Positions 7,957 to 52,886 of a stretch of DNA of 64,000 nt are shown piece by piece. The DNA comes from Mobula hypostoma (taxonomy: Eukaryota). Position numbers and translations under genes: made by a program. Location of the stretch: NCBI RefSeq assembly GCF_963921235.1, contig NC_086097.1, positions 78,866,001 to 78,930,000 of the forward strand. Reading direction: 5' to 3'. The notes beneath the pieces were generated by a model that saw only the letters and a list, made by a program, of their open reading frames with translations, ran no database searches and was not told the DNA's origin. How positions within the stretch are numbered: position 1 is the first letter of the stretch; the number at the start of each line of letters is the position of its first letter.

Positions 7957-8073
7957 ATGTCTTTGCGACTGAGAATTGTGCACCTTTTGGGGAAACAGCT
8001 GGGCGCTTTTCCCAAGCAGAAGCGATCGGTCCATTCTCTGGGTATAATCGGTGCGCCATTCTCCTATGGCCAG
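7957..8073 (+). CDS. ARG2: ARG2 coding exon 1
   Basis: gccATGt start; [39 protein letters not shown]; donor CAG|gtactg. Confidence 0.95.
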
Positions 8074-11000
8074 GTACTGAGAGTTTCATTTATCCAAAAT
8101 CTAACGGGGGAGGGGTGACTGAATGTGTGGTAGCAATGACCCACCTAAGAACGTCATCTTTTGTTATTGCGACTGCACAAATGCGTGCAGAATGCAAGCT
8201 AACATTTGTAATGATTCCTGTTGGTGTTTATATATTTGTATTGATTTAATTATAGAAGCGGCGAGGAGTCGAGGTTGGGCCCCAGGCAATCAGGGACGCC
8301 GGGCTGATAGATCGCTTGAAAGCACTGGGTGAGTACAGGGCTACTGCAGCAGCTAACGGATGGGAGTGTATGCATCAGCGCGGTTCGCAGCTCAGTCGGG
8401 GAGCAAGCACTTCGCGACTTTTATTTACCTACGCATATACTTGTTACTTCCCCCCTCTCGCGAGGTCTCGAAGGAAAAGAACCCGGTTTATTCACTTTTT
8501 TTTACATCGATCGATTGCTTTCCACCCCCCTCGTGGTTGGCTTTTATTCCGTTGTGTTTAGTGTTTTTAAAACTGAGCGGCAGCCGTACATGACTAATCC
8601 CTGAGCTTTACTTGTCCGTCTTCTATTCCACCACCACATGGTGTAGAATATCATGTGGAGGAAGGGGGCGAAGTTCCGCGCTGCCAGAACATTGTAAACT
8701 GTGGTCTGAAGCAAACAATCAGAAAAGAACACTGAACAGGAATTGGAAATAAGTGGGGGGGGGGGTGCGAAAATGTGAAATAATGCAGATGCCGAATTGT
8801 GAAATAAAACACTGGGGGGGGGGGAGACGATGAGCAGGTGCCAGGTTAATCTGAAACCCGAACTTTGTTCTCTTTCCATGGATGCCATCTGTCCCGCTGA
8901 GTATTTCTTGCAATATTATATTTTGTTGCTTAATAAAGCTTGTGTAGCCTCTCAGCTAAAGCAACAAATCAGCAAGGTTATCTTCTGATTTCTTTGAAAC
9001 ATTATCAACCAAAACGTTTTATCTGATTAACAGCTAATCTGTGTTTCCAGGTTTTCCGTAGTTGCTAATATGTATTCGTTAACTTAGATAAAGTTCAAAA
9101 TGTTTGTCTATTTCCATATTTGCATATCTGGTATTGCAGGTTTGCCTTCTGAGGAGAGCTTGAATAGAATGGATCTGTCGCACCAGTATTTAATAGAATG
9201 AGAGACAATCTCATTGAAACTAATAACATTCGCACAGGGTTTGGCAGGATAATGCAGGGCAGAAGTTGTCCAAGGACCCGAAAACCAGGGGTCACATCAC
9301 CACATAAGAGGAGGAAATGGAGATTTTTAAAGCGTGTGGTGAATCTTTGGAACTCTTATCTCTGAGGAATGTGGAGGATGTTAAAGGGATATCAAAATAG
9401 CTCGGGTAAAAGAGTGTGAGCTAGGTTAGCTGCGATGAACGGTGGAACGGGCGTCAAGGGCCAAATGCTCTTATTTTGTTATTCTACAGCTTCAAGATCT
9501 TACGATACTCTGGGAAGAAGGGGGAAAGGTGATAAGATTCACGGGAGTGTGTAATTTACAAGTGACTTGATTGTAAGTGTTGGCTGTGAACTTTTCTGTT
9601 AAGGAAATTACAGATCTGGAAATTTGAACACGGAATCCAGGTTGCTAACGCGCGCAGAAATGAGCGCTGTACTTCCTCCTCCTGCTGGCAGAAGCTCCAT
9701 TCTGACCTCCTGTGTTAAGGAGGCAACATTGCGCCATTTTTGTCCTTCAACATCACTAAAATTATCTTGTGCTAATCGCATACTGTAGCTCTTTAGGGCC
9801 TTGTGCATAAATTGATGGCTTGTTTCACATACTAAAGCTATGACCACATTGAAAATACTTCGAGTGGATAGTGGTGTGAACGCTTTGAGGTCTTGACAAT
9901 AGTTTATAGAAGTTCTTTAATTGAAAAATAAGTTGTCTGGTGGAAGCAAGGGCTGCAACAGAAAGGATTGTAAATTATTTTTGTGGCTGGTTGATCATTC
10001 AACACTTGAATGTCCCATTTGTTAATAATTATACTAATTAAGGAAGGAGGTGCTGTAGTCATGCCGTTTGCTGGTTTGTGAAATTTCTAAATCCATAACG
10101 CAGTGAAGCCCCTGTCTGTTCTACATTCTGTTCTTTAGACAAGCCTGCACTGTAGAAATGTGGGGAAGAAGTGCTAATACTTTATTTCAGGGGACAGTCT
10201 ATTGGATCAGTCACCATTGCTGTGCTTTTTGGAGAATGATCTCCTTTTGCCAGCTTGGGATTTGATTTCCAAATTCAGACAACAGTTTGTCACCTTTAAT
10301 ATAATGACATGGTTAACGTGCATAGCCCTGGCTATAAAACTTGATGTACTTGTGAGTTTCACAGAATAATGCAAACTCAAGCAAGTACTCATTACTAAAC
10401 TGACTTTTTGTTTTTAGAGTCATGGAGCACTACAGCATAGAAACAGGCCCTTCAGCCCATCTAGTCTGTGCCAACCTATTTATCTGCGTAGTCCCACCAA
10501 CCAGCACCTGGACTATAACCCTCCATGCCCCTCCCGTCCATGTGCCTATCAAAGTTTCTCTAAATGTTGAAATCAACATTTACCATTTTTTTTTGCCAGT
10601 TTCAGCCACTTTTGTTTTCTCTCCTGCCACCTACAAATCTAATGAATGATAAAAATAGAAAATGTTGGAATTACCGAACAGGTTAGGCATATGCATGGAA
10701 AGACGACCAAGAGTTAACATTTTGTTTCTCGTTTTACAAATACTACCAGATGTGCTGAGAGTTTCCAATATTTCATGGTTGCTTCATCTTTTTGATCAAA
10801 CTACACGTGACTTGCTGTTGCTCACACCTCCACTTCTATCCCTGCGTTCATAGAACAATACAGCACAGGACCACAGCTTTCATCCCACAATGTTTGCATT
10901 GTGGCACCATCACATCTGCTTCCACCAGCACCCCTGCAGTGTGTTCCCGGTACCTCCCAGTATCTGTGTAAAACACATGTCCCACACATCTGCTTCCACC

Positions 11001-14000
11001 AGTACCCCTGCAGTGTGTTCCCGGTACCTCCCAGTATCTGTGTAAAACAAATGTCCCACAGATCTGCTTCCACCAGCACCCCTGCAGTGTGTTCCCGGTA
11101 CCTCCCAGTATCTGTGTAAAACAAATGTCCCACACATCTGCTTCCACCAGCACCCCTGCAGTGTGTTCCCGGTACCTCCCAGTATCTGTGTAAAACACAT
11201 GTCCCACACATCTGCTTCCACCAGTACCCCTGCAGTGTGTTCCCGGTACCTCCCAGTATCTGTGTAAAACACATGTCCCACACATCTGCTTTAACTGCTT
11301 TAATGAAAGGTCGCCAGTGTGAGATATTAAACTTTAGTTACCATAAGTGTTAACGAACTTTGCTACCTTGATCCTTTTTAAAGATTTCCAGTATTTTTTG
11401 TTGAAATGTTCCCTACACTGCATGTTCTTTGAATGAAATTTAATATATAAACAAATACCTTGTGTTAGATAAAGAATAGGTAACGAAGATTTCAAAGTTC
11501 TTGTATATTGGCAAGGAGTATCATCCAATTAATTTTTTCATCACTAAGCTGTAAATTATTTCCATAGTTGAACTTGAATAGTAAAACTAAAGTTGAACTT
11601 TAGTAAGTAACTAGTTTTGTGTAAATATTTTTCGGCCCTTCAGCCTGGTCCTCTATTGAATGCACTTACAATAAACCTGTAACTTAGTTCCATACAGGTG
11701 TTCCCCACTTTTCAAACGTTCTCTTTACGAAACCTCGCTGTGACAAAAGACCTACATTAGTTACGCAACACGAGGAATTCTGCAGATGCTGGAAATTCAA
11801 GCAACACACATCAAAGTTGCTGGTGAACACAGCAGGCCAGGCAACATCTCTAGGAAGACGTACAGTCGACGTTTCAGGCCGAGACCCTTCGTCAGGACTA
11901 ACTGAAGAAAGAGCTAGTAAGAGATTTAAAAGGGGGAGGGGGAGATCCAAAATGATAGGAGAAGACAGAGGGGGAGGGATGGAGCCAACAGCTGGACAGG
12001 TGATAGGCAAAAGGGATATGAGAGGATCATGGGACAGGAGGCCCAGGGAGAAGGAAAAGGGGGAGGGGGAAAGGGGGGAAAAGCCCACAGGATAGGCAAG
12101 GGGTATAGTCAGAGGGAAGAAGAGGAGAGTGAGAGAAAGAAGGTGTGTATATAAATAACGGATGGGGTACGAGGGGGAGGTGGGGCATTAGTGGAAGTTA
12201 GAGAAGTCAATGTTCATACCATCAGGTTGGAGGCTACCCAGACAGAATATAAGGTGGTGTTCCTCCAACCTGAGTGTAGTTTCATCTTTACAGTAGAGGA
12301 GGCCGTGGATAGACATGTCAGAATGGGAATGGGATGTGGAATTAAAATGTGTGGCCACTGGGAGATCCTCGTTGACTTTATTAACTTTGCCTCCAACTTT
12401 CACCCTGCCCTCAAGTTTACCTGGTCCATTTGCGACACCTCCCTCCCCTTTCTAGATCTTTCTGTCTCTATCTCTGGAGACAGCTTATCTACAGATGTCT
12501 ACTATAAGCGTACTGACTCTCACAGCTATCTGGACTATTCCTCTTCTCACCCTGTCTCTTGCAAAAATGCCATCCCTTTTTCGCAATTCCTCCGTCTCCG
12601 CTGCATCTGCTCTCAGAATGAGGCTTTTCATTCCAGGACAAGGGAGATGTCCTCCTTTTTTAAAGAAAGGGGTTTCCCTTCCTCCACCATCAACTCTGCT
12701 CTCAAACGCATCTCCCCCATTTCACGCACATCTGCTCTCACTCCATCCTCCCGCCACCCCACTAGAAATAGGGTTCCCCTGGTCCTCACCTACCACCCCA
12801 CCAGCCTCCGGGTCCAACATATAATTCTCCGTAACTTCCGCCACCTCCAACGGGATCCCACCACTAAGCACATCTTTCCCTGCCCCCCCCCGCTTTCTGC
12901 AAGGATCGCTCCCTACGCGACTCCCTTGTCCATTTGTTCCCCCCCCCCATCCCTCCCCACTGATCTCCCTCCTGGCACTTATCCTTGTAAGCGGAACAAG
13001 TGCTACACATGCCCTTACACTTCCTCCCTTACCACCATTCAGGGCCCCAGACAGTCCTTCCAGGTGAGGTGAAATTTCACCTGTGAGTCGGCTGGGGTGA
13101 TATACTGTGTCCGGTGCTCCCGATATGGCCTTCTATATATTGGCGAGACCCGACGCAGACTGGGAGAGCATTTTGCTGAACACCTACGCTCTGTCCACTA
13201 GAGAAAGCAGGATCTCCCAGTGGCCACACATTTTAATTCCACATCCCATTCCCATTCTGACATGTCTATCCAGGACCTCCTCTACTGTAAAGATGAAGCC
13301 ACACTCAGGTTGGAGGAACAACACCTTATATTCCGTCTGGGTAGCCTCCAACCTGATGGCATGAACATTGACTTCTCTAACTTCCACTAATGCCCCACCT
13401 CCCTCTCGTACCCCATCCGTTATTTATATACACACCTTCTTTCTCTCACTCTCCTTTTTCTCCCTTTGTCCCTCTGACTATACCCCTTGCCCATCCTGTG
13501 GGCTTTTCCCCCCTTCCCCCCCTTTCCCTTCTCCCTGGGCCTCCTGTCTCATGATCCTCTCATATCCCTTTTGCCAATCACCTGTCCAGTTGTTGGCTCC
13601 ATCCCTCCCCCTCCAGTCTTCTCCTATCATTTTGGATCCCCCCCCCTCCCCCTTTTAAATCTCTTACTAGCTCTTTCTTCAGTTAGTCCTGACAAAGGGT
13701 CTCGGCCTGAAATGTCGACTGTACCTCTTCCTAGAGATGCTGCCTGGCCTGCTGTGTTCACCAGCAACTTTGATGTGTGTTGACCTACGTTAGTTACCTG
13801 TTTTTGCTAACAGAAGGTGTTTTCACTGTTACGAAAAAAGGCAGCACACGCTAAAAGGGAGCGCGCGCCCCAAGCAGCTGAGCTGCTCCCCTGGAACTGC
13901 ATTCTAGCCGACATTGCTTAAACACGTGCCTGTGAGCAGCCGTTAGCAAGATGAGTTCTAAGGTATCGGAAAAGCCTAAAAGAGCTCGTAAGGGTGTTAC

Positions 14001-17000
14001 ACTTAGTGAAAAACTAGACATAATTAAGCGTTTCGACCGTGGTGAACAAAGTAAGGACAAAGTGAGTTTGGCTTGTGGAAGTTGACGAAGATGATGTTGA
14101 AGAGGTTTTGGCAGCCCATGACCAAGAACTGATGGATGAAGAGCTGATGCAATTGGAAGAGGAAAGGATAACAATTGAAACCGAATGCAATAGCGAATGG
14201 ACCAAAAGTGAAGTTGTCCAGGAACTGAACGTGAAGCAACTGCATGAGATTTTCGCTGCAATGATTGCAGAAAAGTACGACTTTAATTTTGAAAGGATAC
14301 GTCGGTTTAGGGCATATTTGCAAGATGGTTTGAGTGCTTACAAAGAACTGTATGATAGAAAAATGTGTGAGGCTAAGCAGTCAGGCATACCGTCGTTTTT
14401 CAAGCCTTCCACAGCAGACAACGAACCTTGATCTTCGATATCAAGGCAGGCAGACATAGAAGACATAGAAGTGGACCGATACATTACTGCGGAGAATGCA
14501 GGGGTAGCTGTGACGCACCCAACACATCTTTAAGAAAAAAGCCGAAATAAACTAGCTAATTAATTAGGTGCCGCTCGGCAGGTAAATGTCGGCCCAGATC
14601 AGAGGCAATTGCCGATTGCGTCGGCTCTGATCTGGGCCGACATTTACGTGCTGGGCGGCACCTAATTAATTAGCTTGTTTATTTCGGCTTTTTTTTTAAT
14701 TAAAGATGCGTTGGGTGCGTCCCTGCTACTGCTGCACCACTGCATGCTTCGTGGATTGGTATCGGTCCGCGGCCTGGAGGGTGGGGGCCACTGCACCACC
14801 CCAACCTCAGACGACTCAGCCTAACACACCATCATCAGTGTGCTCGCTGTCTTCCCAATTCCGGTAAGTGATACTAAACTGTACATATATTATTTCTACT
14901 TTATATAGGCTATGTATTTTTGTGTTATTTGGTATGATTTGGCAGCTTCATTGCTTAAAGGTTACTGGAGAGAGTGTTTCTGCCAAGAGCGCTTGTGCGA
15001 GGTTTTCGCTACGGAGAACAGTGCAGCAATGTTTGTAGAAAAGTATTTCTACTTTATATAGACTGTGTATTGATCATATCATTCCTGCTTTTACTATGTT
15101 ACTGTTATTTTAGGTTTTATGTGATACTTGGCATGATTTGGTAGGTTATTTTTTTGGGTCTGCGAACGCTCACAAATTTTTCCCATATAAATGGTAATTG
15201 CTTCTTCACTTTACGACATTCCGGCTTACGAACCGTTTCATAGGAACGCTGTACCTTCGGATGGTGGGGGAAACCTGTATACGTATCTTTCTCCAAACTT
15301 AATACATTTTGGTTCACAATTGATCAATTTTGGACTAAAATTAATGGTTGATGCAACATGTCTTTTTGTCTGCAGAAGAGTTCAAAGTACCGTATACTTT
15401 GTAAGCGCATTTTCTGACTGCTGCTGAGATACCCATTTCTGAGTCTTAGACTGTCCCAGCCTTGATTCATTGACCAGGGAGAATTTTTTTTCCCCCCGTT
15501 TGCCTGATTTGTTGCTTGGTTTCTTTGATTAGATCACTCCATAGTGCTGAATATCCCAGTAAAAAGGGGGGGGGGTCCAGTTATTTTGATATTTCTACAC
15601 TGTATTCCCTCAAATCCAATATGCTTCCCAAGTTGTAACTCCCAGAATTGATCTCAGTTATGAGACGTCTAATTCTCTGATCACTTCAATGCATTGAAAT
15701 CCTTTGGAGAGTTTAGCTCATATGTTTAAGTTACTGTTTTTGGTGCATCTATCCACACACCTTGCATTGATGCATATTTTTTTGTTGGCTGTATAGCAAG
15801 CTTGAATGCATAATTAACAGTCTATTCCACCTTCAATGGATAGTTTAAGCCCCAACACAGATTCCTACCGGACATTAATGTTGTACCATCTTCAGTAACT
15901 GTCCAATATCTGCATTGGTTGCTATAGTTCAACCAACTTCTGTAATGTGTTAATAATTTACCTTCTGAGCTTCAATTTTTTAGCAATATCAGTAAACATT
16001 TCCCTACTTCAGGTATGGCTCCAAGTAGTTGGCAACAGGCTTATTCTGCATGGCTGACCTCTACAAAACCATGCAGATGAGAACAATTTTGATCAAAAGG
16101 AATAGTTCAAGAAGTGAATTTTAAAAGATTACAATTGTGGCTGCAGTGTTACAATCAACACCTTTTGTTTGTTGGCTTGGGAACTATATGGTTTTGGATA
16201 ACTTTTGGGTGGGCAAATAAGTGGGTGATGAGAGTAGTTGATGGGATGTTGAATGGTTCTAGGGACTAAAGTAAGCAATGCAATCAGGCAGAATGCCTGA
16301 AATATTTTGTATCAGTCTTAACCAATAGAGGATGCTGCCAAAATCTCAGGAGAAAATAGATGGGAGTGAAAATTACTTAAGATTTGATACAGTGAAATTG
16401 TGGTGAAACTTAACATGAATCAGTTACTTGTCTTGAATGAGAGATATTCTGAGTTCCCAAAGGAAGTTCATTGGAGATTGCTGTAAACAAGAGCCTACCA
16501 TACTCCTGGAATGCATATATATCATCTCGCTGTATTTTAAGAAATTGTTTCACAAACTAATGTAAAGGAACAACTGTATTTTTAAATTCACTTCTTGAAC
16601 CATACCTTTTGATCAAAGTAGTGACAGCTTGAAGAGAAATAGTGTGAATAAAGAATGCAAAGAGTTGGGGAAAGCATTTATTTTTATATTGGAGGATGAT
16701 GGGCAATAGTCCCCAGGGCTAGGAGCAAGAAGAAATTTACTTAAAATTTTGTTATTTGTAAATAAATTCACAAATTGAACATGAGCGTGCAAGGTAATAT
16801 TCAAATTCCAGATGACTAAAACGTTGAAGAGAATAGCAATACATTGCCAAGGGCGTCAGCTGGCTAAATATACAAATGAAATTTTGTGCCTAGAAATCTA
16901 AAGTTAAACAGTGAGGAAAGATAGTATAACATTAAGGCACAAACCTGGTTTTAGCTGTTTATAAATTAAACAAGTGTAATTACATCTCGAGGACCTTTGC

Positions 17001-20000
17001 TTTTTCTGTTTTCTAGTCCACTAGGATACATAGGTTTGTCAGTGTTCAAAGCTGTTTGTGGTGCTTTGGGCAAATGTAATTCGTGTTCTTTTTATAAAAT
17101 GTTTCTTTTCCATATTCATTGTTTTAAACAGCCCCCACTAATTTACTGTGCTTTTGTTGTGTTTATCATTAACAGTTTTGTCTTAATTGCATGCATTTAG
17201 GCTTTACCTTCAAACCTTCTTCAATTTTGACACCGTTGAGCTTTTAAAATTACGATTACAAATACAGTCAAAGTAAATCTGGCTTGTTGCATGTTAAATC
17301 GAGTATGGACCATCTCCTTACTGAATCCAGCACCTAGTGTTGCGGAAAAACCTATCCTGAGCACCCTGGAAATTCATTCCTTGATCTCAATGCAGGTTTA
17401 AAAATTCCACAGTAAAACCATTTTTTTATTTGCCATGGCTGTTTTATTTTCAACATTATGTTTTGATATTTCATAAGTGATTCCTGTAACAACTTCCAGA
17501 ATCATAAATTATTTTCCATTTCTAAATTATCCTCATTGACTACAATGCCTACTTGGAGACTGGCTTTATTTACCACGTGTATGTGGTGAATGCATCATTT
17601 TAAAGAAATCAAGGATCAACTTCACCATATACATTTACATGCATTGGGAATTTGGTGTACTGTGGTGGAACAATATACAACAGAAACATTCAACAATTTA
17701 AACAAAGAATTATATTTTTTAAAAAGTGTAGGTATGGAATAAAATGTGCATAAATGTATTTGCAATGCAAACAGCATTATAAAAAGTGGTTTAGTGAATG
17801 AGGTAATGGGGGTGGCGGTGGCTAACTAGAATAGTTAATCAGATTAACTGCCGGGGGGAAGAAACTTTTAAATTGGTAAGTTTTTTCTTTAATGGCCCTC
17901 CAGCACTTGCCAGAATGGAGCTTTTGGAAAAGGCAGCTTGCTGGGTCAGTAGTGTCTGCTCTGTTTTTTTCTGCTGGCTTCTTTGTCCTGGTACATACGA
18001 GTCCTGCCATGATGGTATACTGTAGCCAATGACATTCTAAGCTGTTCTGACAGTTTACTGTAGTTTTGGTATTATGAGAGGATGCTGCACCAAACTAGAC
18101 AGTAATGGCTGATTATGTGGATGCTGTCTATGATTGCAGTGTAGAATTGCACCAGTATGTTCTGGGGAAGATGGAACTTTACCAACTGCCGCAGGAAGCA
18201 CATCCTCTGCTGAGCCTTTTTGTTAATGAAGGGAAGAGGTAGAAAATAATAAAACTTACTTGGTGTAGCTGCACACTGTAGTCTGCCTGATTTATTTTAT
18301 TGTTTGCATTTTACCATTTTCTCTGAGATTACATCCTTTGGTTTATTGTTGTGTAATGTGAGTAAGTACAATTTCTGTCATTTCATGCGTCTCTTCGCTC
18401 ATTTGCTTTAGATCCTAGTTTGAGTACAATCTGTCCCAGAGATGATTTTTGTAATACAAATGTGAAATGTCCAATGCAGTGCATGCATAAATCACTTCAG
18501 GCCCATGTTTACCTATATTCCTTAACACATTACCAATGTGCACATGACTCGTATTCAGAAACCTGGTCTTTTTGTTTAACTTGGTGTCTGTTACAATACA
18601 GTTGGAACAATTTGCCTTTTTTAAAAGTTATTTTACCTCCCTTCCCTCACCCCCAGCTTCATTATTTCTTCTTTTTTCTTTTGGGGAATAGGCTCTTTGC
18701 ATTCCAAATGATTGAACAAAGATTCCATTGCTGGTGTTGAGATACTGCAGTTATGGTACTGGATTAGTATTGGGCTAATCTGTTGATATACCAATCCCAC
18801 CGTAGCAATTGTGAGGATTATCACATTAATTAAATCCAGAGTTTTAAAAAAAGACTATTTAAAAAGGGAGAATGGCCCATTTAAAAAAAAATGTATCCAC
18901 TAATGCCTTCAAAATAGAAAATCTTCTGTCCCTAGTTGGTTTGGGATTCCAGAGCATGCTCGCCTGCCCCAAAATGCCCAGGTCTGGTTGATCACCACTG
19001 GCATCAAAAGGATACAGTAATAAAGCTCGGAGGAGTAAATTTTATTTGCTTTGGTACCAGGCATCACAAAGGCACAACCAGCCCAGTCAACTCATCTTCA
19101 CAAATGGCCTTGAAGACGAAGACTATTGTAATTGCCTTCTGCAGAATCGTGCAGTACTGGAGAAGGAGTGCTGGGGGTGGGGGGGGGAGGGTGCAGACAC
19201 ACCCAGCCCTGAGACACCAGACAATGTTATTTGATTCCAAACCAATGTTATTTGGTTTATTGATCATTACAGAATGTCTCTCTGGTGGTTCCCACTCCAT
19301 CCCTTCTGCCTGCCCCTTCCCACTCTCGGTCCACAGTAGAGACCCATATCAGAATCTGGTTTATCATCACTCACGTGTCATGAAATTTGTTCTTTTTAAA
19401 AAAAACAGCAGTAGTATTGTACAATACATAAAATTACTACAGTACTGTGCAAAAGTCTTGGGCACCCAAGCTAAGTGCCTATAAGACTTTTGCACAGCAC
19501 TGCATCTTGCAGCTTGAGTCCTCTATCAACAACCCAGAGTAACTACTAACCTCCTAGAGCTTTTCCCATCCAGAAAGTAAGTTAGAAATACGACAGATTC
19601 CCTCAAATCCCTGAATGAGTGAAATTCCAACATCACAGAATCCCCAATAGTTGTTATTATTAAAATAACATTTTGGCTGAACAGTAATTTGGTGTTAGGA
19701 ACTTGTTCCTCATGAACATGGTGTTCTCAGCTCTGCACAACTAAAATAGTAACCCATCTGTCAATTATTATACAGACAGTGAATAATCAATAAGTGCCAA
19801 ATATTCAACATACTGTCCCCAAATTTCATAATAATGAAAACTCTTCTAAAAAATATTAGAATGAACTCTGAATGAAATATAATTCTAAGTGTCCAGTTTG
19901 TCTTTTAAAGATTTCACTTGAGTCAGAATTTTCCATTGACCGCTACGTGGTAAACATGGGTTGTTGCAGAATATTTACCAACATCAGGTTTAATGATCAA

Positions 20001-23000
20001 CATAACTTAAGAAGCAGAAAGAAGCTCACAAGCTTTATGACCAGTATTGTGAACCTTTGTCAAATTAATAACTCCCATTGCCATGGGCATTGGGAAGGGG
20101 CTAGGTAAATAGGTTTATATTAATTAGAAGCAGGAAGTGGCCAATCAGCCTCTTATGTAAGATGATGACTAATTCGTTCTTACCATCAACACCACTTTCT
20201 TGGTCTCCCCAACTCCTTTCACTCCATTGTAGTTTAAATAGCCATCAGTCTCTGCCTTGAATATATTCAACCATTTGGGGGATGAAGAACCCCAAAGATT
20301 TACAGATTAATTGGGGAACCCTTTAGTTCTGAAACTATATTGCCTTGTTCCAGATAACCCTTTTGGGGGGAAACATGCAGTCTAAAAGGCTAATTAATGG
20401 GTGTAGTTTGAAATCCGTGTTGTAGATTTCCACACAAAACAACTCAATAGCTTAACAGGTTACCAAGTACAAAAGGCAAATCTCCTTCATCAGAAAAACA
20501 TTCTCCAGACACCTACATGACTCTTGTGTACACTTGGAATGTTACTGATCTAGCAATTAATCTGCAGTTGGTGGTGTTTTTATTTAGTGGCTTCCTGTGG
20601 GAGGATGATTCTCAAGAGTTGTATTCTGTTTACATAGATAAGTATACTTTACACTTGAACTTGAATTTTGATATGGTACCATTTCTAATCAGTATATGTT
20701 CATTTTCAGGTTGGAACCTTCATGACTATGGAAACCTGAATTTCACAACTGTACCAAATGATACACCATATAAGAATATTCACCACCCAAGAACAGTGGG
20801 TTTAGCAAACCAGTCATTAACTGAAGCAGTCAGTCGGGCAGTTAGGGATGGTCACATAAGTGTTATGCTTGGAGGAGATCATAGGTAGGTTGATAGCATG
20901 CAGTTAAGTTTTAATAGTCTGACATTTACACACACTTAACTATTGCACGTGGATTGGTAATTTTTAAAAATTTCTTATCCTAACCAGTTTAGGAATTGGT
21001 TCAGTCCATGGGCATGCCCAACAGCGTCCAGACTTGTGTGTCATTTGGGTGGATGCACATTGTGATCTAAACACACCTCTTACAACCACATCTGGAAATA
21101 TGCATGGACAGCCAGTGTCGTTCCTTATAAAAGAGCTGCAGAACAAGGTAAAACTATATTTGAATTAAACCAGTTATGAACCATTTTGTTTAGTAGGATT
21201 ATGATGTATTTGTTCATCTTAGGAATAGATTGTTTTCTGCAGCTATATTTTACCAGTAGATACCTTTTACTTTACAAATTGTGCTTTTCTTTTAGATCCC
21301 ATCACTCCCTGGATTTTCTTGGGTCACTCCTTGTATATCAGCAAAGGACTTGGTTTACATTGGAGTACGGGATGTTGATCCTGCTGAATAGTAAGAATGG
21401 TTTCTAGAATTGACTTAAATGAAAATTGCAGTACATTAATACCACCTTAGACACTTGGCAAACGTCTCCATTTGTAATCAGTGAAGCTAAAATGAAAGTA
21501 AATTTGATGCAAAAGTACTGTTAAATTTGTATGCAAACATTTATTGCATTGCAGTTTGACACTTGCATTCATTTTAAATTTATTTAAATTCCTTATTCAG
21601 TCCTGTTTGTTGTCAACCTTTTAGGTACTCCCTTGCTTTAGAGGTATACTTGCTTCCACTCCATTTCTGTGATGAAGCCAATATGGGACCCACTAATTTT
21701 TTGCCACAGGTGGAACAAGGAATGCTTAATGGAGGGGTTGGTGGGTTGATCAGGCAATTTTGCTTTCCTCATTATTCTGAACTTGTTTGTTCCCAGTGAA
21801 TGGGCTTAAAAGTTCTGAATGCCAGTTGGAATGCTCCTTTTTCATTTTGGTTGGTCATGTTCCATAGAATCCCAAAACTTGGTCCAGATATGTTCTCCAG
21901 ATTTTGATACTGTCCTCTTTTTGTTTCTTATAGTATCCAGATAGAGCTCTAATAAGTCTGTGTTTCAGAAGTCTTGTGTTCAACATAAAAATAATGTTGG
22001 CTGTACATTCTGTGCACTTAGGGCCTCAGTGTTTTGGATTGATGACTGAGAGGAGGATGTTTACATTGATTACTTAATCCTCCAAATACATTGCTAGAGG
22101 TTGTGGAGATGATAATGGTAACTCTCTTGGATCTCTAGGTCCTTGCTGTAAGTAGTCCATGACTCTGGTTTACAGGATAGCAAGGATTACTACTACCATA
22201 AGCTTTGAGGTCTTGGTCTTTCAGTGCTTTCCTCAGTCAGCAAAAATCTGTGCTGGCAGTTTGAAGGTGATGCTGACTGCCTTCATTGGGATGTAGTTCC
22301 TGAGTTAGGGGTGGTGGTCTGCATTTTCCAGGTTCTCGGCATAGGCCTTTATTGCTGAGCAGTGTCATGCAGCAGGGCTAAATTACTCCTTATTTTGTAG
22401 ATGTTATTTGTAAGGCCTGCACTCTATACATGAGTGGATTTGAAGCTCTGCCTCAGTGTTCTGCAACTCTGACTGAAGTTCAACAACATTGGTTCTGGAG
22501 AGGAGGAGAAGTCGGTTGAACATTTGTCCTGTAGATTAGTTCAGATCCATTGGGAAAGTTTCTGGAGAAAGCTCGAGGAAGGCATTGGTTGATGATGTTT
22601 TGATACTGTCTATACTGAGATTTGTTTTGTTGTGTGGTCCATTTGTTAAGATCCTGACTTCCGTGCCTTTAGGTTGCAGGCATGACTTGTAAAAAAAATT
22701 TTTGCAGACAGCTAAATTTGAGAACGATGTTCCACAATTCCTCTTAATTGGTCAAGGCTTGAGGTCAAAAAAAGCCACGTATAGTTACTGCAATATAAGT
22801 GGTGGATATTCAGATTAAATGATGCACATGCTTGTTTAACTGTTAAATATTTACACCATAAATATTTTCTAAAAATGATGGTATACACTATATTTCAAAG
22901 TGCTGCATGATATGCAAATACGAAAGTACTCAGTGGCAACTAAAAATGATTTGTCTGTGATAATTGATGTAAATGCTGGGAAATAATTACTTAGAAGTAA

Positions 23001-26000
23001 TGATTATATATGAAATTATGGCCTCTGAGCTTTCACTATTTAGAAATCCCAAAATTGTATTTAAATCTTAATGTCCTTGATTCAATAAACTTCACATGGA
23101 ACTACTTGGATCCTGAAACTGACCCCAAACAAATAAGAAAAAATTGTAATGATTGCTTTTCTTACTATCAGCTACATCCTGAAAAATTTTGGCATCCAGT
23201 ATTTCTCAATGAAAGAGGTGGATCAACTTGGAATACAGAAAGTAATGGAAAAAACACTTGATTATCTAGTTGGAAAGTAAGTTAAATAACTACTAAACAG
23301 AACAATATTGCTCACACTGACTGTCCAGCAATGATCAATGATTATTTGTACCCTTATTTTGGGTCATAAAAATAACTTCATGTAGCCACTTTCTCATGGA
23401 GGGGTTGGTAGGGAGATGTATCAGTTAATATCAGCAAAATTTTAATCTCCATTTTAGATAATAGAAACATAGAAAATAGGTGCAGGAGTAGGCCATTCGG
23501 CCCTTCGAGCCTGCACCGCCATTTATTATGATCATGGCTGATCATCCAACTCAGAACCCCACCCCAGCCTTCCCTCCATACCCCCTGACCCCCATAGCCA
23601 CAAGGGCCATATCTAACTCCCTCTTAAATATAGCCAATGAACTGGCCTCAACTGTTTCCTGTGGCAGAGAATTCCACAGATTCACCACTCTCTGTGTGAA
23701 GAAGTTTTTCCTAATCTCGGTCCTAAAAGGCTTCCCCTCTATCCTCAAACTGTGGCCCCTCGTTCTGGACTTCCCCAACATCAGAAACAATCTTCCTGCA
23801 TCTAGCCTGTCCAATCCCTTTAGGATCTTATATGTTTCAATCAGATCCCCCCTCAATCTTCTAAATTCCAACGAGTACAAGCCCAGTTCATCCAGTCTTT
23901 CTTCATATGAAAGTCCTGCCATCCCAGGAATCAATCTGGTGAACCTTCTTTGTATTCCCTCTATGGCAAAGATGTCTTTCCTCAGATTAGGGGACCAAAA
24001 CTGCACACAATACTCCAGGTGTGGTCTCACCAAGGCCTTGTACAACTGCAGTGGTACCTCCCTGCTCCTGTACTCGAATCCTCTCCCTATAAATGCCAGC
24101 ATACCATTCGCCTTTTTCACCGCCTGCTGTACCTGCATGCCCACTTTCAATGACTGGTGTATAATGACACCCAGGTCTCGTTGCACCTCCCCTTTTCCTA
24201 ATCGGCCACCATTCAGATAATAATCTGTTTTCCTATTTTTGCCACCAAAGTGGATAACTTCACATTTATCCACATTAAATAGCATCTGCCATGAATTTGC
24301 CCACTCACCCAACCTATCCAAGTCACCTTGCATCCTCTTAGCATCCTCCTCACAGCTAACACTGCCACCCAGCTTCGTGTCATCCGCAAACTTGGAGATG
24401 CTGCATTTAATTCCCTCATCCAAGTCATTAATATATATTGTAAACAACTGGGGTCCCAGCCCTGAGCCTTGCGGTACCCCACTAGTCACCGCCTGCCATT
24501 CTGAAAAGGTCCCGTTTATTCCCACTCTTTGCTTCCTGTCTGCTAACCAATTCTCCACCCACACCAATACCTTACCCCCAATACCGTGTGCTTTAAGTTT
24601 GCACACTAATCTCCTGTGTGGGACCTTGTCAAAAGCCTTTTGAAAATCCAAATATACCACATCCACTGGTTCTCCCCTATCCACTCTACTAGTTACATCC
24701 TCAAAAAATTCTATGAGATTCGTCAGACATGATTTTCCTTTCACAAATCCATGCTGATGATTTCACCGCTTTCCAAATGTGCTGTTATCACATCCTTGAT
24801 AATTGACTCCAGCAGTTTCCCCACCACCGACGTTAGGTCTATAATTCCCCGGTTTCTCTCTCCCTCCTTTTTTAAAAAGTGGAGTTACATTAGCCACCCT
24901 CCAATCCTCAGGAACTAGTCCAGAATCTAACGAGTTTTGCAAAATTATCACTAATGCATCCACTATTTCTTGGGCTACTTCCTTAAGCACTCTGGGATGC
25001 AGACCATCTGGCCCTGGGGATTTATCTGCCTTCAATCCCTTCAATTTACCTAACACCACTTCCCTACTGACATGTATTTCGCTCAGTTCCTCCATCTCAC
25101 TGGACCCTCTGTCCCCTACTATTTCTGGAAGATTATTTATGTCCTCCTTAGTGAAGACAGAACCAAAGTAATTATTCAATTGGTCTGCCATGTCCTTGCT
25201 CCCCATAATCAATTCACCTGTTTCTGTCTGCAAGGGACCTACATTTGTCTTTACCAGTCTTTTCCTTTCTACATATCTATAAAAGCTTTTACAGTCAGTT
25301 TTTATGTTCCCTGCCAGTTTTCTCTCATAATCTTTTTTCCCCTTCCTAATTAAGCCCTTTGTCCTCCTCTGCTGAACTCTGAATTTCTCCCAGTCCTCAG
25401 GTGAGCCACTTTCTCTGGCTAATTTGTATGCTTCTTCTTTGGAATTGATACTATCCCTAATTTCTCTTGTCAGCCACGGGTGCACTACCTTCCTTGATTT
25501 ATTCTTTTGCCAAACTGGGATGAACAATTGTTGTAGTTCATCCATGCAACCTTTAAATGCTTGCCATTGCATATCCACCGTCAATCCTTTAAGTGTCATT
25601 TGCCAGTCTATCTTAGCTAATTCACGTCTCATACCTTCAAAGTTACCCCTCTTTAAGTTCAGAACCTTTGTTTCTGAATTAACTATGTCACTCTCCATCT
25701 TAATGAAGAATTCCACCATATTATGGTCACTCTTACCCAAGGGGCCTCTCACGACAAGATCGCTAATTAACCCTTCCTCATTACTCAAAACCCAGTCCAG
25801 AATAGCCTGCTCTCTAGTTGGTTCCTCGACATGTTGGTTCAAAAAACCATCCCGCATACATTCCAAGAAATCCTCTTCCTCAGCACCTTTACCAATTTGG
25901 TTCACCCAATCTACATGTAGATTGAAGTCACCCATTATAACTGCTGTTCCTTTATTGCACACATTTCTAATTTCCTGTTTAATACCATCTCCGACCTCAC

Positions 26001-26905
26001 TACTACTGTTAGGTGGCCTGTACACAACTCCCACCAGCGTCTTCTGCCCCTTACTGTTACGCAGCTCTACCCATATCGATTCCACATCTTCCCGGCTTAT
26101 GTCCTTCCTTTCTATTGCATTAATCTCTTCTTTAACCAGCAACGCCACCCCACCTCCCCTTCCTTCATGTCTATCCCTCCTGAATATTGAATATCCCTGA
26201 ACGTTGAGCTCCCATCCCTGGTCACCCTGGAGCCATGTCTCTGTGATCCCAACTATATCATAATCATTAATAACAATCTGCACTTTCAATTCATCCACCT
26301 TATTACGAATGCTCCTTGCATTGACACATAAAGCCTGCAATAATGGGCTGCAATAACCTGCTTCATAGATCAGCTTGTAAATTAGACTTTTGAAATCTGA
26401 AAGTAAAGGTTGATTTATTTAATGGATAAACATAAATCTGAATCTAACCTTGTATGTTGCTTTATAGAAAGAAAAGACCATTGCACCTGAGTTTTGATGT
26501 CGATGCCATTGATCCATCTTTAGCTCCTGCTACTGGTACTCCAGTGATTGGAGGACTAACTTACAGGGAAGGAATGTATATTGCTGAAGAAGTGTACAAC
26601 TCTGGTATGAAACAATGTGTAGAAGCAACTGGTTGATTAGTGAAAGTCTTGCAGTTGTTCACTTGCATTGAAATGTGACACTTGTATCCATTGTTTCTCA
26701 TGCAGGAATGCTGTCTGCAATGGATCTGGTGGAAGTCAATCCTAATCTTGCAACTACAGATAAAGAACTTAATTCCACAGTAAACATCGCCGTGGATATT
26801 ATTTCCTTTTCTTTGGGACAGGCACGAGAAGGATCTCATGGCAAATGTGATGAAATACCAGCTCCTGATACAAGTGAAACAAGTGAACAGACCGTACGGC
26901 TTTAG
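7957..26905 (+). CDS. ARG2: Arginase-2 (mitochondrial), complete 8-exon gene, 353 aa
   Basis: Exons 7957-8073, 8256-8328, 20710-20884, 20988-21147, 21296-21390, 23172-23276, 26468-26604, 26706-26905, all GT-AG with consistent phases (1062 nt). Motifs [36 protein letters not shown]-terminal basic mitochondrial-type presequence [14 protein letters not shown]; adjacent to VTI1B as in other vertebrates. Confidence 0.97.
8256..8328 (+). CDS. ARG2: ARG2 exon 2
   Basis: tatag|[24 protein letters not shown](G)|gtgagt, 73 nt. Confidence 0.95.
10911..11291. repeat. Minisatellite, 74-bp unit, 5 full copies plus ~11 bp
   Basis: Unit CACATCTGCTTCCACCAGYACCCCTGCAGTGTGTTCCCGGTACCTCCCAGTATCTGTGTAAAACAMATGTCCCA starting at 10911, 10985, 11059, 11133, 11207, 11281. 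Confidence 0.95.
11864..11899 (-). ncRNA. Minimal type I hammerhead ribozyme in PLE pLTR, intact core
   Basis: Minus strand AGUC-CUGACGA-AGG GUCUCGG CCU-GAAA-C-GUC^GACU: stem I AGUC/GACU, conserved core, stem II, palindromic ACGU stem III. Confidence 0.8.
13685..13720 (+). ncRNA. Mutated PLE hammerhead copy
   Basis: AGTC CTGACAA AGGGTCTCGGCCT GAAAT GTC GACT; core G8>A and stem III C>T. Confidence 0.65.
17600..18230 (-). mobile_element. Old Rex1/Babar-like LINE 3' fragment
   Basis: Decayed match to the Rex1-type C-terminus ([22 protein letters not shown]); boundaries approximate. Confidence 0.55.
19440..19502. mobile_element. 63-bp Tc1-type MITE hairpin
   Basis: CAGTACTGTGCAAAAGTCTT ... AAGACTTTTGCACAGCACTG inverted termini, preceded by TA. 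Confidence 0.7.
20710..20884 (+). CDS. ARG2: ARG2 exon 3
   Basis: ttttcag|[12 protein letters not shown]...VMLGGDH(S)|gtaggt. Confidence 0.95.
20988..21147 (+). CDS. ARG2: ARG2 exon 4
   Basis: accag|[54 protein letters not shown]|gtaaaa. Confidence 0.96.
21296..21390 (+). CDS. ARG2: ARG2 exon 5
   Basis: tttag|[31 protein letters not shown](Y)|gtaag. Confidence 0.95.
21600..22760 (-). mobile_element. Old RTE-like LINE fragment in ARG2 intron 5
   Basis: Heavily decayed; RTE-type 3' end and RT-like remnant; assignment tentative. Confidence 0.4.
23172..23276 (+). CDS. ARG2: ARG2 exon 6
   Basis: atcag|[34 protein letters not shown](K)|gtaagt. Confidence 0.95.
23455..26337 (-). mobile_element. 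Young CR1 LINE, nearly complete ORF2 (APE endonuclease plus RT), in ARG2 intron 6
   Basis: ORFs of 525 aa (NARS, GITETWL, GDFN, SDH) and 397 aa ([19 protein letters not shown]); small deletions near 24757 and 24836; (TTCTATGT)n-type tail. Confidence 0.93.
26468..26604 (+). CDS. ARG2: ARG2 exon 7
   Basis: tatag|[45 protein letters not shown](G)|gtatga. Confidence 0.96.
26706..26905 (+). CDS. ARG2: ARG2 exon 8 (to stop)
   Basis: tgcag|[16 protein letters not shown]...EQTVRL-TAG. Confidence 0.95.
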
Positions 26906-40094: not shown

Positions 40095-43000
40095 CAAGAC
40101 CAGCAAGGGAGCAGTTACTCTATTGGGAGTATTCTATAGGCCCCCTGGTAGCAGCAGAGATACCGAGGAGCAGATTGGGAGGCAGATTTTGGAAAGGTGC
40201 AAAAATAACAGGATTGTATCATGGGTGACTTTAAATTCCCTAATATTGATTGGCACCTGATTAGTTCCAATGGTTTAGACGGGACAGAGTTTGTTAAGTG
40301 TCTCCAGGATGGATTCCTGTCATAGTGTGTTCACAGGCCAGCTAAGGGGAATGCCATACTAGATCTAGTATTAGGTAACAAACCAGGTCAGGTCACAGAT
40401 CTCTCAGTGAGTGAGCACCTGGGGGACAGTGACCACCGCAGACATCCCACCTCTCCCGGAAGTTCCGGGAGTCTCCCGCATATGAATAGTGGCTCCCTGA
40501 TGCCCGCAAATTATATACAACATCACGGAAATCAATTTTTTGAGAGCGCGAGAGCAAGCAAGCGAGAGCGACCACGGGAGAGAGAGAGCGAGAGCACGCC
40601 ATGGCAGAGTGTTCCAAAAAAAAAGAAAATATAAAACGCACGTCACCCCATGCTACACTAAGGTGTACCCCTGCCTAATAGGGGTCAAAAATAATGACCG
40701 TGTTGCTCGCTGCACTGTTTGCATCAGTGACTTTTCTATTGCCCATGGTGGGTCAAGACTGTAAAAGACATGTTGAGGTGAGTTTAACAGGTGTCATTTG
40801 TTCATTAGATAGCTAACATTATTTAAACTAGCTGGCTGGCTGCTAAGGAGCTACTCTGTTGCAGACACCCCACCTCTCCTGGAAGTCTCCCCCAAATTAA
40901 TGGTGCTATCTCCCTGAAATCAGTTTTTGCAGGGTGGACTGTCTGCCACCGCTCCCTGGCCTTTAGCATTATCATGGAAAAGGATAGAATCAGAGAGGAC
41001 AGGAAAATTTTTAATTGGGGAAGGCAAATTATGAGGCTATAAGGCTAGAACTTGCGGGTGTGAATTGGGATGATGTTTTAGCAAGGAAATGTACTATGAA
41101 CATGTGGTCAATGTTTAGGGATCTCTTGTGGGATGTTAGGGATAAATTTGTCCCGGTGAGGAAGATAAAGAATGGTAGGGTGAAGGAACCATGGATGACC
41201 AGTGAGGTGGAAAATCTAGTCAGGTGGAAGAAGGCAACATACACGAGGTTTAGGAAGCAAGGACCAGATGAGCCTATTGAGAAATATAGGGTAGCAAGAA
41301 AGGAGCTTAAGAAGGAGCTGAGGAGAGCAAGAAGGGGGCATGAGGAGGCTTTGACGAGTAGGGTAAAGGAAAACCACAAGGCATTCTCCAATTATGTGAA
41401 GAACAAAAGGATAACAGGAGTGAAGGTAGGACTGATTAGAGATAAAGATGGGAAGATGTTCCTGGAGGCTGTGGAAGTGAGCAAGGCCCTCAATAAATAG
41501 TTCTCTTCAGTATTCACCAATGAGAGGGAACTTAATGAAGGTGAGGACAATATGAGTGAGGTTGATGTTCTGGAGCATGTTGATATTAAGGGAGAGGAGG
41601 TATTGGAGTTGCTAAAATACATTAGGATGGATAAGTCCCCAGGATCTGATGGAATATTCCTGAGGCTGCTCCATGAGGTGAGGGAAAAGATTGCTGAGCC
41701 TCTGGCTAGGATTTTTATGTCCTTGTCCACGGGAATGGTACCGGAGGATTAGAGGGAGGAGAATGTTGTTCCCTTGTTCAGAAAAGGTAGTAGGGATAGT
41801 CCAGGTAATTATAGACCAGTGAGCCTTACATCTGTGGTAGAAAAACTGTTGGAAAAGATTCTTAGAGATAGGATCTATGGGTATTTAGAGAAACATGGCC
41901 TGATCAGGGACAGTCAGCATGGCTTTGTGAAGGGCAGATCATGTCTAACAAGCCTGACAGAGTGCTTTGAGGAGGTGACCAGGCATATAGATGAGGGTAG
42001 TGCAGTGGATGTGATCTACATGGATTTTAGTAAGACATTTGACAAGGTTCCGCATGGTAGGCTTATTCAGAAAGTCGGAAGGCATGGGATCCAGGGAAGT
42101 TTGGCCAGGTGGATTCAGAATTGGCTTGCCTGCAGTAAGCAAAGGGCCGTGGTGGAGGGAGTACATTTGTATTGGAGGATTGTGACTAGTGGTGTCCCAC
42201 AAGGATCAGTTCTGGGAGCTCTACTTTCTGTGATATTTATTAACGACCTGGATGTGGGGTTAGAAAGGTGGGTTGGCAAGTTTGCAAACGACACAAAGGT
42301 TGGTGGTGGTGTTGTGTATAGCGTAGAGGATTGTCAAAGATTGCAGAGAGACATTGATAAGATGCAGAAGTGGGCTGAGAAGTGGCAGATGGAGTTCAAC
42401 CCGGAGAAGTGTGAGGTGGTACACTTTGGAAGGACAAACTCCAAGGCAGAGTACAAAGTAAATGGCAGGATACTTGGTAGTGTGGAGGAGCAGAGGGATC
42501 TGGGGGTACATGCCCATAGATCTCTGAAAGTTGCCTCACAGGTAGATAGGGTAGTTAAGAAAGCTTATGGGGTGTTATCCTTCATAAGTTGAGTGATAGA
42601 GTTTAAGAGTTGCGAGGTAATGATGCAGCTCTATAAAACTCTGGTTAGGTCGCACTTGGAGTACTGTGTCCAGTTCTGGTCGCCTCACTATAAGAAGGAC
42701 GTGGAAGCATTGGAAAGGGTACAGAGGAGCTTTACCAGGATACTGCCTGGTTTAGAGAGTATGCATTATGATCAGAGATTAAGGGAGCTAGGGCTTTACT
42801 CTTTGGAGAGAAGGAGGATGAGAGGAGACATAATAGAGGTATACAAGATTTTAAGAGGAATAGATAGAGTGGACAACCAGCGCATCTTCCCCAGGGCACC
42901 ACTGCTCAATATAAGAGGACATGGCTTTAAGGTAAGGGGTGGGAAGTTCAAGGGGGATATTAGAGGAAGGTTTTTTACTCAGAGAGTGATTGGTGCCTGG

Positions 43001-43175
43001 AATGCACTGCCTGAGTCAGTGGAGGCAGATATACTAGTGCAATTTAAGAGACTACTAGACAGGTATATGGAGGAATTTAAGGTGGGGGGTTATATGGGAG
43101 GCAGGGTTTAAGGGTTGGCCAAACATTGTGGACTGAAGGGCCTGTACTGTGCTGTATTGTTCTATGTTCTATGTT
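40095..43175 (+). mobile_element. CR1 LINE ORF2 (stops/frameshifts), interrupted by hAT
   Basis: YRPP, GDF, SDH, NYRPVSLTS, YMDFSKTFDKVPH, KFANDTK; (TTCTATG)n tail. Confidence 0.9.
40439..40945 (+). mobile_element. Non-autonomous hAT-like element (Blackjack/hAT6-like) nested in CR1
   Basis: TIRs CAGACATCCCACC / GGTGGACTGTCTG; flanking CCACCG duplicated; BED-finger remnant RCTVCISDFSIAHGG..CKRH. Confidence 0.8.
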
Positions 43176-51700: not shown

Positions 51701-52886
51701 GTATTAATTCTTTTTTGGATTTATTTAAAGAAGATAGATTGATGTCCTTTGAACAATTAATTGATAAATATGCTCTTTCATACACTTTTTGCAATACCTT
51801 CAAGTTAGACATTTTTTACAAAAATACTTAAGTAATTTCCCTTACATATTGGAGGCTGACCTGTTAGATACTATTATGAGTATGAATCCTTTGATTAAGG
51901 GTTCTATTGGAAGAATTTATAATTTACTATTACAATGGGATAAGCGTCCTTTGTCTAAGATTAAACAGGTTTGGGAAAAGGAACTTAATTTGACTTTTAT
52001 GATGGAGGATTGGATGCGGATATTGAAGTTGGTTAACTCTTCTTCAATTTGTGCTAGCCATTCATTGATTCAATTTAAAATTGTACATCGTTATCATTTG
52101 ACAAAGGAGAGACTTTCTAAAATCTTTTCTAATGTTGATAGTCATTGTGATAGGTGTAAAACTGAGATAGCTACACTGACACATATGTTTTGGTCTTGTT
52201 CTAAATTGGAACAGTTCTGGAAGTCGGTTTTCTCAAGCACTTAAAATTAATTTACAACCTAATAAATTAACTGTGGTTTTTGGCACTTAAAGCAGTTAAA
52301 ATTAATTTACAACCTAATAAATTAACTGTGCTTTTTGGAATAGTTCCTCAAAATATTCATGGTATTTCTGTGTCTGACCAACATGTTATTGCATTTGTTA
52401 CATCGATAGCTAGGAGGGCCATTTTGTTGAAGTGGAAGGATACATCAGCTCCCACTTTGTCACAATGGTTCTCTCAAGTGATGCTATGTCTTAGTTTGGA
52501 GAAAATTAGAAGTCGAACCTTTGAACCTTTATTTGATTTTGAGAAAAGATGGGACTCATTTGCTCATTATTATCATTTGAGTTAATTGATATAATTTTTC
52601 CATGATCTAATTGTAAATTCTTTTAGTATATTTTCTCTTTTTGCTGGTGGTTTGATGTTTATTTTTAGAAGCTTTTTGTATGATGCATGGCTCCGGGGTT
52701 GTACACCTAATGGGTTCTCTTTTTTTTTTCTCACTTTTCTGCTTAGTAGGTTTTTTTTGTTATCACAAAATTTTGTTTACAGTCTTTAAGATGATGAGTT
52801 TTTTTTTGAGGCATTGTAAGTGTTGTTACTTCGATGTACTCATGTTTTTTTTCTATATATACAATAAAAAGATTTGAAAAGAAAAA
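45761..52886 (+). mobile_element. Near full-length L1-clade LINE (ORF1, spacer, ORF2 with frameshifts)
   Basis: 13-bp TSD GGAAAAGCCTAAG (45748-45760, 52887-52899); ORF1 (DLETRSRQRNLRIVGL, IERAYR, FYEDY); ORF2 SWNVRG, QETH, GDFN, SDH, YRPISLLN, YADD, C-terminal CDRC..THMFWSC; AATAAA plus A-rich tail. Confidence 0.93.
45891..47205 (-). mobile_element. HERO-clade (RLE-type) LINE 3' part nested in the L1 5' region
   Basis: CPLCSKRGTLEHILSGC zinc knuckle, RWRHDQV, PD..(V)SETTKQVVLLELTVPWED..ERK restriction-like endonuclease. Confidence 0.85.

Follow-up and report, generated by a model that had tools for sequence, protein, structure and literature searches.

The arginase-2 locus

The window, by which we mean the whole 64-kb stretch of DNA analysed here, carries on its plus strand an arginase gene whose later exons reach ~26890 and whose first three exons show GT-AG junctions. 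The parts of the gene that frame the motif are the following:

7957-8073, plus strand: arginase-2 exon 1, with the ATG at 7957
8256-8328, plus strand: arginase-2 exon 2, with GT-AG junctions
8329-20709, plus strand: arginase-2 intron 2, which contains the insertion
20710-20884, plus strand: arginase-2 exon 3, with GT-AG junctions

Scores against the two arginases favour arginase-2 over arginase-1 at exon 3 (57.9 vs 52.2 bits) and at the last exon (64.6 vs 38.4 bits), and exon 4 gives a tie at 83.6 bits each. The exon map together with the scores of exon 3 and the last exon identifies the host as arginase-2, so that the minus-strand hammerhead motif described below lies antisense in intron 2, as the first-pass annotation of this DNA had placed it. 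A second arginase gene, probably arginase-1, was found at 23854891-23859546 of contig C75. Intron 2 of arginase-2 also holds a 74-bp tandem repeat at 10837-11365, with ~6 copies that are 97-100% alike in the middle of the array.

A head-to-head Penelope insertion in intron 2

The motif sits in an insertion of two arms, which occupies positions 11765-13782 between its TSDs:

11750..11764, plus strand: left TSD, 15 bp, with one mismatch to the right TSD
11765..12369, minus strand: left arm, ~605 nt, 3' end of a Neptune-type PLE
~11765-11801, minus strand: tail of ~35 nt, at the end of the left arm only
12368..13782, plus strand: right arm, 1,415 nt, head-to-head with the left arm
13685..13720, plus strand (arginase sense): sister hammerhead, broken at two CpG sites (G8>A, C15.2>U)
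13783..13797, plus strand: right TSD, 15 bp

This is a 5'-truncated Neptune-type Penelope element in head-to-head arrangement, with its two 3' ends facing outward. The left arm comprises the last part of the GIY-YIG region, the 3' UTR, the pLTR with the hammerhead and the tail, while the right arm runs from the C-terminal RT/thumb through a CX4CXXC linker, the GIY-YIG endonuclease and the 3' UTR to a pLTR that lacks the tail, and its frame is interrupted by in-frame stops at 13070-13072 and 13199-13201. The head-to-head order with a one-sided tail corresponds, as read from the sequence, to the standard PLE pattern, and the 93.4% identity of the two arms over 579 columns points to a young insertion.

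The available parts of two accounts of Neptune-clade EN+ PLEs describe the same traits: a single frame with RT plus a GIY-YIG domain at its C terminus, joined by a CX2-5CXXC linker, partial tandems, an adjacent inverted 5'-truncated copy, a one-sided tail of 30-40 bp and a TSD (bioRxiv 10.1101/2021.04.23.441226; PMC3846280). The window insertion differs from full elements of that clade in being a broken 3' fragment.

A minimal type I hammerhead motif

On the minus strand, the 36 nt from 11899 to 11864 make up a complete minimal type I hammerhead motif, which reads AGUC CUGACGA A GGGU CUCG GCCU GAAA C G U C ^ GACU. Its parts, taken from this read, the base numbering and the pair probabilities, are:

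11899-11896 with 11867-11864, minus strand: stem I (read and numbering)
11895-11889, minus strand: core CUGACGA (read)
11888, minus strand: bulged A (pair probabilities)
11887-11884 with 11879-11876, minus strand: stem II, with the G10.1-U11.1 wobble
11875-11872, minus strand: GAAA (read)
11872-11869, minus strand: palindrome ACGU (read)
11868, minus strand: C17, with the predicted cut between 11868 and 11867

The full set of core nucleotides is present (CUGANGA, GAAA, U16.1-H17), stem I consists of four Watson-Crick pairs and a U-G pair, and helix III is replaced by the palindrome ACGU, that is, A15.1-C15.2-G16.2-U16.1. The numbering (C17 at 11868, G1.1 at 11867) predicts cleavage between 11868 and 11867. 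In all of this our read coincides with the first-pass annotation, which had reported a core-complete motif with the same cut and the same reduced stem III. The two diverge at stem II, which had been drawn as AGG/CCU with a 7-nt loop: that register was rejected, with a pair probability of ~0.02, against 0.86-0.96 for GGGU/GCCU with a CUCG loop and a bulged A after A9. We prefer the bulged-A register because of its higher pair probability and its agreement with the published parsing (PMC4209133); the bulged A at 11888 is then the extra nucleotide between 9 and 10.1, and stem II closes with a G10.1-U11.1 wobble, not with the consensus G-C. In minus-strand RNA the hammerhead stems reach a pair probability of at most 0.002 when 48 nt of upstream context are included, and 0.13-0.15 when the RNA starts at 11899, where the fold is more accessible.

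A search with a minimal type I descriptor (stem I of at least 3 pairs, core, stem II of at least 3 pairs, Watson-Crick 15.2/16.2 pair, UH) gave a single match in the 64-kb window, the motif at 11899-11864; the 10 Markov controls, each 264 kb long, gave 0 matches apiece. A chance resemblance within repeat DNA would fit with the loose core pattern alone, which occurs 3 times against 0.73 expected and so near chance, with an Rfam scan at E<=1 that matched no hammerhead family, and with the lack of compensatory changes in stems I and II among the sampled subfamilies. Yet the clean controls for the full descriptor, the position in a pLTR and the fit of every min-HHR trait to the published consensus leave this explanation a negligible likelihood.

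Minimal type I hammerheads are known from PLE pLTRs, where a single motif showed no cleavage and dimers little, and their consensus carries an extra nucleotide between 9 and 10.1 (PMC4209133). The window motif shares with them the type I topology, the CUGANGA core with the extra nucleotide before 10.1, a short helix I, the absence of helix III beyond the palindromic 15.2/16.2 pair and the occurrence of one motif per pLTR, mostly in dispersed single copies. The core and the C G U C ending are the same as in the Acropora Neptune entry (PMC4209133). The dominant subfamily of this genome closes stem II with G10.1-U11.1, unlike the G-C of the published consensus, a G-U closure found as well in the S. 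mansoni family 1 (which was assayed), cichlid, Xenopus 1 and Latimeria 1 entries (PMC4209133). A further difference is the helix II of 4 bp, unlike those of the published min-HHRs. With its place in the pLTR of an RT/GIY-YIG element remnant and all descriptor features present, the initial assignment to a Penelope pLTR holds, and by every sequence feature examined the motif is a PLE min-HHR whose self-cleavage is predicted only. We found no cartilaginous-fish entry in the published min-HHR alignment (PMC4209133), and a literature search that left most subscription papers outside returned no paper on cartilaginous-fish PLE hammerheads or on 5' ends at the front edge of the motif.

Non-LTR retrozymes carry canonical type I hammerheads which, like those conserved in amniote introns, share the catalytic core and the type I topology with the window motif (PMC7229834, PMC6155905). 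Unlike canonical retrozymes, the window motif is single, without a short tandem array, helix III or loop 1-loop 2 contacts. A retrozyme identity was ruled out by the missing helix III, the single motif and the absence of a tandem unit around it. One chondrichthyan genome is listed with hammerhead-bearing tandem retrozymes in the accessible text of a preprint (bioRxiv 10.64898/2026.07.22.740005).

The element family in the genome

In full-length relatives the unit measures 3.5 kb and stands in tandem or partial tandem; it holds an RT/GIY-YIG frame of 1,042-1,043 codons and one hammerhead per pLTR, which the probable start codon follows at a distance of 138 nt. Apparently intact full-length elements were seen at three loci, L047 (contig C2, 157226000-157235900), L048 and L049; at the first two, hammerheads ~3.5 kb apart flank a frame of 1,043 codons. 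The frame of L049 shows DKG at 448, YIDD at 689, the CX4CXXC linker at 909-917 and YIG at 959, and its profile matches (RVT_1, E 3.6e-5; GIY-YIG, E 0.0027) both fall below the Pfam cut-offs. Because of this zinc-finger linker we place the element as putatively Neptune-type, or Nematis. The family was active recently, given that the two tandem units of L047 are 99.7% identical.

Across the 3.48 Gb of the genome the 34-mer of the window motif was counted 36,060 times, against 0 for the reversed control, and its C11.1 form 5,457 times. Tolerating CpG decay raises the number of motif sites to 84,856, and 83,943 matches were obtained with a 30-base pattern that lies downstream of the cut. These figures (36,060 identical copies and 84,856 with CpG decay) compare with ~4,000 in the coelacanth and ~9,000 in Xenopus (PMC4209133), so that at least 36,060 identical and ~85,000 near-identical motifs are well above the published min-HHR counts cited. 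Canonical retrozyme motifs of the axolotl, reported as 126,247, outnumber the min-HHR copies counted here.

U11.1 was found in every hammerhead of the 8 long-ORF loci examined, older subfamilies carrying mostly C11.1. That U11.1 is private CpG damage of the window copy was rejected, as most copies have it and intact elements carry it too. Since all hammerheads of these 8 loci have it, the wobble is a subfamily trait inherited from active masters. U11.1 removes the CpG over G12, which was lost in 6/37 young C11.1 copies vs 0/56 U11.1 copies (P=0.003), which accounts for a good part of the abundance of intact copies: the core is retained in 142/243 sampled copies of all ages, a sample that includes loci picked for an intact motif.

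Decay after insertion was followed in 96 young copies, at loci whose choice did not depend on the core; there, non-CpG changes amounted to 22/952 in the core, 36/1524 in the stems and 36/1140 in the flank (core vs flank, P=0.28). As the core decays like the flanks, there is no sign of selection on the motif after insertion. The majority sequence of the family retains the core, so the case in which the family consensus lacks it does not apply, and subfamily majorities keep the motif while the linkers diverge, which suggests selection on the master elements. Among the sampled subfamilies stems are shared and differences fall at N7, loop II and 11.1, with no double-sided stem change.

A C at core position 6 was seen in 20/261 aligned copies, among them L113, L130, L224, L144, L118, L097 and L087. 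Most of these copies fall in one older subfamily, so a subfamily bearing A6C has itself amplified. A6C is described, in the available part of one study, as a natural hammerhead variant favouring Mn2+ (PMC7151607). In many head-to-head pairs (for example contig C1, 2546805-2546874) the junction falls inside the hammerhead or just upstream of it, which makes them short fold-back insertions. One unrelated min-HHR, with different stems and a longer stem II, came from the non-random loci, and suggests a second hammerhead-bearing family in the genome.

Where family copies begin and end

To place the ends of family copies, 288 arms were mapped in ~1.2 Mb of genome plus the window, mostly in the first 8 Mb of contig C1, from 90 loci around the downstream pattern, 40 around intact motifs and 20 blind-picked stretches; arms lying <60 bases from a locus edge and duplicates were left out, and arms of at least 86% identity were called young. 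The 215 young arms comprise 36 single ones with a TSD, 115 with an inverted neighbour, 10 with a direct neighbour and 54 unclassified. Positions are counted with the base that directly follows the cut as 0, and the placement of alignment ends carries an uncertainty of ~3 bases.

The 5' ends of the TSD-flanked young copies pile up at the front edge of the motif (15/36 at -39..-31), and none of the 36 lies at the cut site (-3..+3). In the sets not chosen on the core, 8/22 TSD-flanked copies start at -37..-29; 8 of the 15 starts within -100..+40 fall in this bin (P ~1e-6 against a uniform null), a bin chosen after seeing the data and a null that is crude. Among young arms of all classes from these core-unselected sets that start within -100..+40, 24/87 do so at -37..-29 vs 3/87 at -4..+4, and 3/5 older TSD-flanked copies start at -33..-31. 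For 32 copies with the 5' end of the ORF, 23 start further upstream (2 of these run off the locus), 2 at -32/-30 and 7 at +6..+56, two rows of the set coming from the reference locus itself; the 23/32 upstream starts are tandem read-through, and 0/32 start at the cut site, the nearest being at +6. A gathering of 5' ends on the cut site, as in vivo cleavage might leave it, was looked for and not found (0/36 and 0/32). At the other side, the 3' ends of the family form two clusters, one near +66 and the other at +94 to +103 from the cut; these are the two RT start points.

In the window copy, the front edge coincides with the following feature:

11896..11905, minus strand: initiator-like pyrimidine-A motifs that overlap stem I on its 5' strand, their A residues being at 11899 and 11903

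Stem I opens with an A at position -32, in a pyrimidine-pyrimidine-A-G-U-C-C context which, as we take it, resembles the initiator (Inr) consensus. We lean slightly towards the front-edge pile-up marking the transcription start of the element, with a promoter role for this putative initiator. Other explanations for the same starts are an RT stop or a fold-back of the cDNA at the motif, and a splice acceptor, as in D. virilis (PMC4209133). A spliced leader was considered as well and is unlikely, no shared sequence preceding those copies.

A more elaborate scheme built on such a start is tentative, and we regard it as rather doubtful as a whole: the mRNA would begin at the initiator over stem I, with the hammerhead as its first 36 nt, and reverse transcription from the tail of the 5' pLTR would run off the end to give strong-stop-like stubs of 95-135 nt. 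Uncleaved RNA would then serve as template, and cleavage, by stripping the capped first 32 nt, would switch it between a template fate and a messenger or decay fate, and would not release the element from a longer RNA. For a PLE hammerhead at the 5' terminus of the RNA, a role in translation is thinkable by analogy with viral UTRs, in which self-cleavage can promote cap-independent translation, according to the accessible part of the source (PMC13725137).

An experimental counterpart is PAc, a Poseidon element from Anolis carolinensis (PMC11167929; Frangieh et al. 2024). As far as the available text of that study goes, its motif cleaved only with protein, both target strands were cut and extended, HHR mutants did not affect insertion and RNA-seq gave no ends at the cut site. 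The family described here shares with PAc a pair of internal RT start sites by which the tail is delimited, the extension of both strands, uncleaved RNA as the substrate and the absence of ends at the cut. It differs in that the PAc ORF starts inside stem II, whereas here the probable start codon lies 138 nt after the cut, and the same part of the PAc study describes no pile-up of 5' ends at the front edge.

The motif was carried into intron 2 of arginase-2 as part of the truncated head-to-head insertion, the enzyme of the element presumably nicking both target strands and uncleaved RNA being reverse-transcribed from the two known internal start points to give the two arms. The templates would have been uncut because the copies span both sides of the cut site. 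Insertion ends thus record that the copied RNAs were uncut and often begun at the front edge of the motif, which bears on the purpose of PLE hammerheads.

Is this copy active?

The reading that we favour, with a probability of about 0.86, is that the window motif is a passive, non-cleaving passenger of an abundant Neptune-type PLE insertion in intron 2 of arginase-2. Several points speak for it. The arginase-2 pre-mRNA carries the complement of the motif and not its core, the plus strand having no loose-core match there; the two arms would pair into a duplex of ~570 bp in sense transcripts; the sister hammerhead in the sense orientation is broken; and no intact partner is near, since a cis dimer partner in the 64-kb window was ruled out with the descriptor, which 0/8 other family matches pass. 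Any action of the motif would take place in the RNA of active master elements, by dimeric or protein-assisted cleavage, and not at this locus. Weighing against passivity, the core is fully intact and the same as in young intact elements, so that it could cleave if the minus strand were transcribed with a partner or a protein at hand; the stems stand at 0.13-0.15 rather than ~0 when RNA starts at 11899; and a promoter of its own may persist in the pLTR (PMC2377424). The motif is also not meaningless for the family, as its persistence in subfamily majorities with diverging linkers indicates.

The same points feed an alternative, improbable in our view, in which a pLTR antisense transcript from ~11899 is cleaved as a trans-dimer, formed with RNA of some of the other identical copies, or aided by the protein of the element, and without host function. 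A core identical to that of young masters, the clustering of family 5' ends at the front edge and the better access of the fold in RNA starting there would suit it, as would the protein-assisted cleavage documented in the consulted part of the anole study (PMC11167929). It has to reckon with the lack of a cis partner within the window, with monomers inactive and dimers weak in vitro (PMC4209133), and with the anole RNA-seq, which in that part of the study showed no RNA ends at the cut site (PMC11167929). Summed depth in four contig-only sequencing runs of guessed type that cover the repeat drops five- to eight-fold across 11896-11923, also in a probable DNA run, a drop that is confounded by upstream divergence and carries no information on strand, ends or level.

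Of the earlier proposal of a potentially active ribozyme in a host gene, the intact core stands and the family keeps it; the host-gene side is not supported, in view of the antisense orientation, the broken sister, the partner missing from the window, the 36,060 copies, the neutral decay of the core and the published min-HHRs, which were inactive as monomers and weak as dimers or required protein. Domestication for the regulation of arginase-2, in the manner of the conserved amniote intronic hammerheads, could appeal to the intron of a urea-cycle gene and to the sole intact motif of the window, and is nonetheless very unlikely. Unlike those hammerheads, the motif is antisense to its host and shows no apparent conservation beyond the repeat family; it lacks helix III and loop contacts, its insertion is young (arms 93.4% alike), and an intact core is common by chance (142/243 sampled copies). 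The private changes of this copy outside the motif, at 11844, 11859 and 11908, look like ordinary drift. Being antisense and one of 36,060 identical copies, it was not identified as a domesticated intronic hammerhead. As a passenger, the locus is one more fossil of a known motif, most likely without effect on arginase-2.

Other repeats of the window

A pair of 75-bp inverted arms around a 20-nt spacer lies at 14530-14699, adjoining transposase-like remnants, with related repeats at 13854-15150 and 53245-54275. The weak Rfam match of 14530-14699 to mir-7131 is due to its hairpin shape, and the repeat is probably a DNA-transposon derivative. On the plus strand, two frames of 330 and 321 codons at 58112-60315 resemble a DNA-transposon protein, and a long element at 47212-52241, in which stops interrupt ORF1-like, endonuclease and RT stretches, is by its motifs presumably L1/Tx1-like. 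Remnants of LINE RTs, which we take from their motifs to be L2/CR1-like, occur at 2-1374, 1668-2711 and 41015-43108 on the plus strand and at 23554-26418 on the minus strand.
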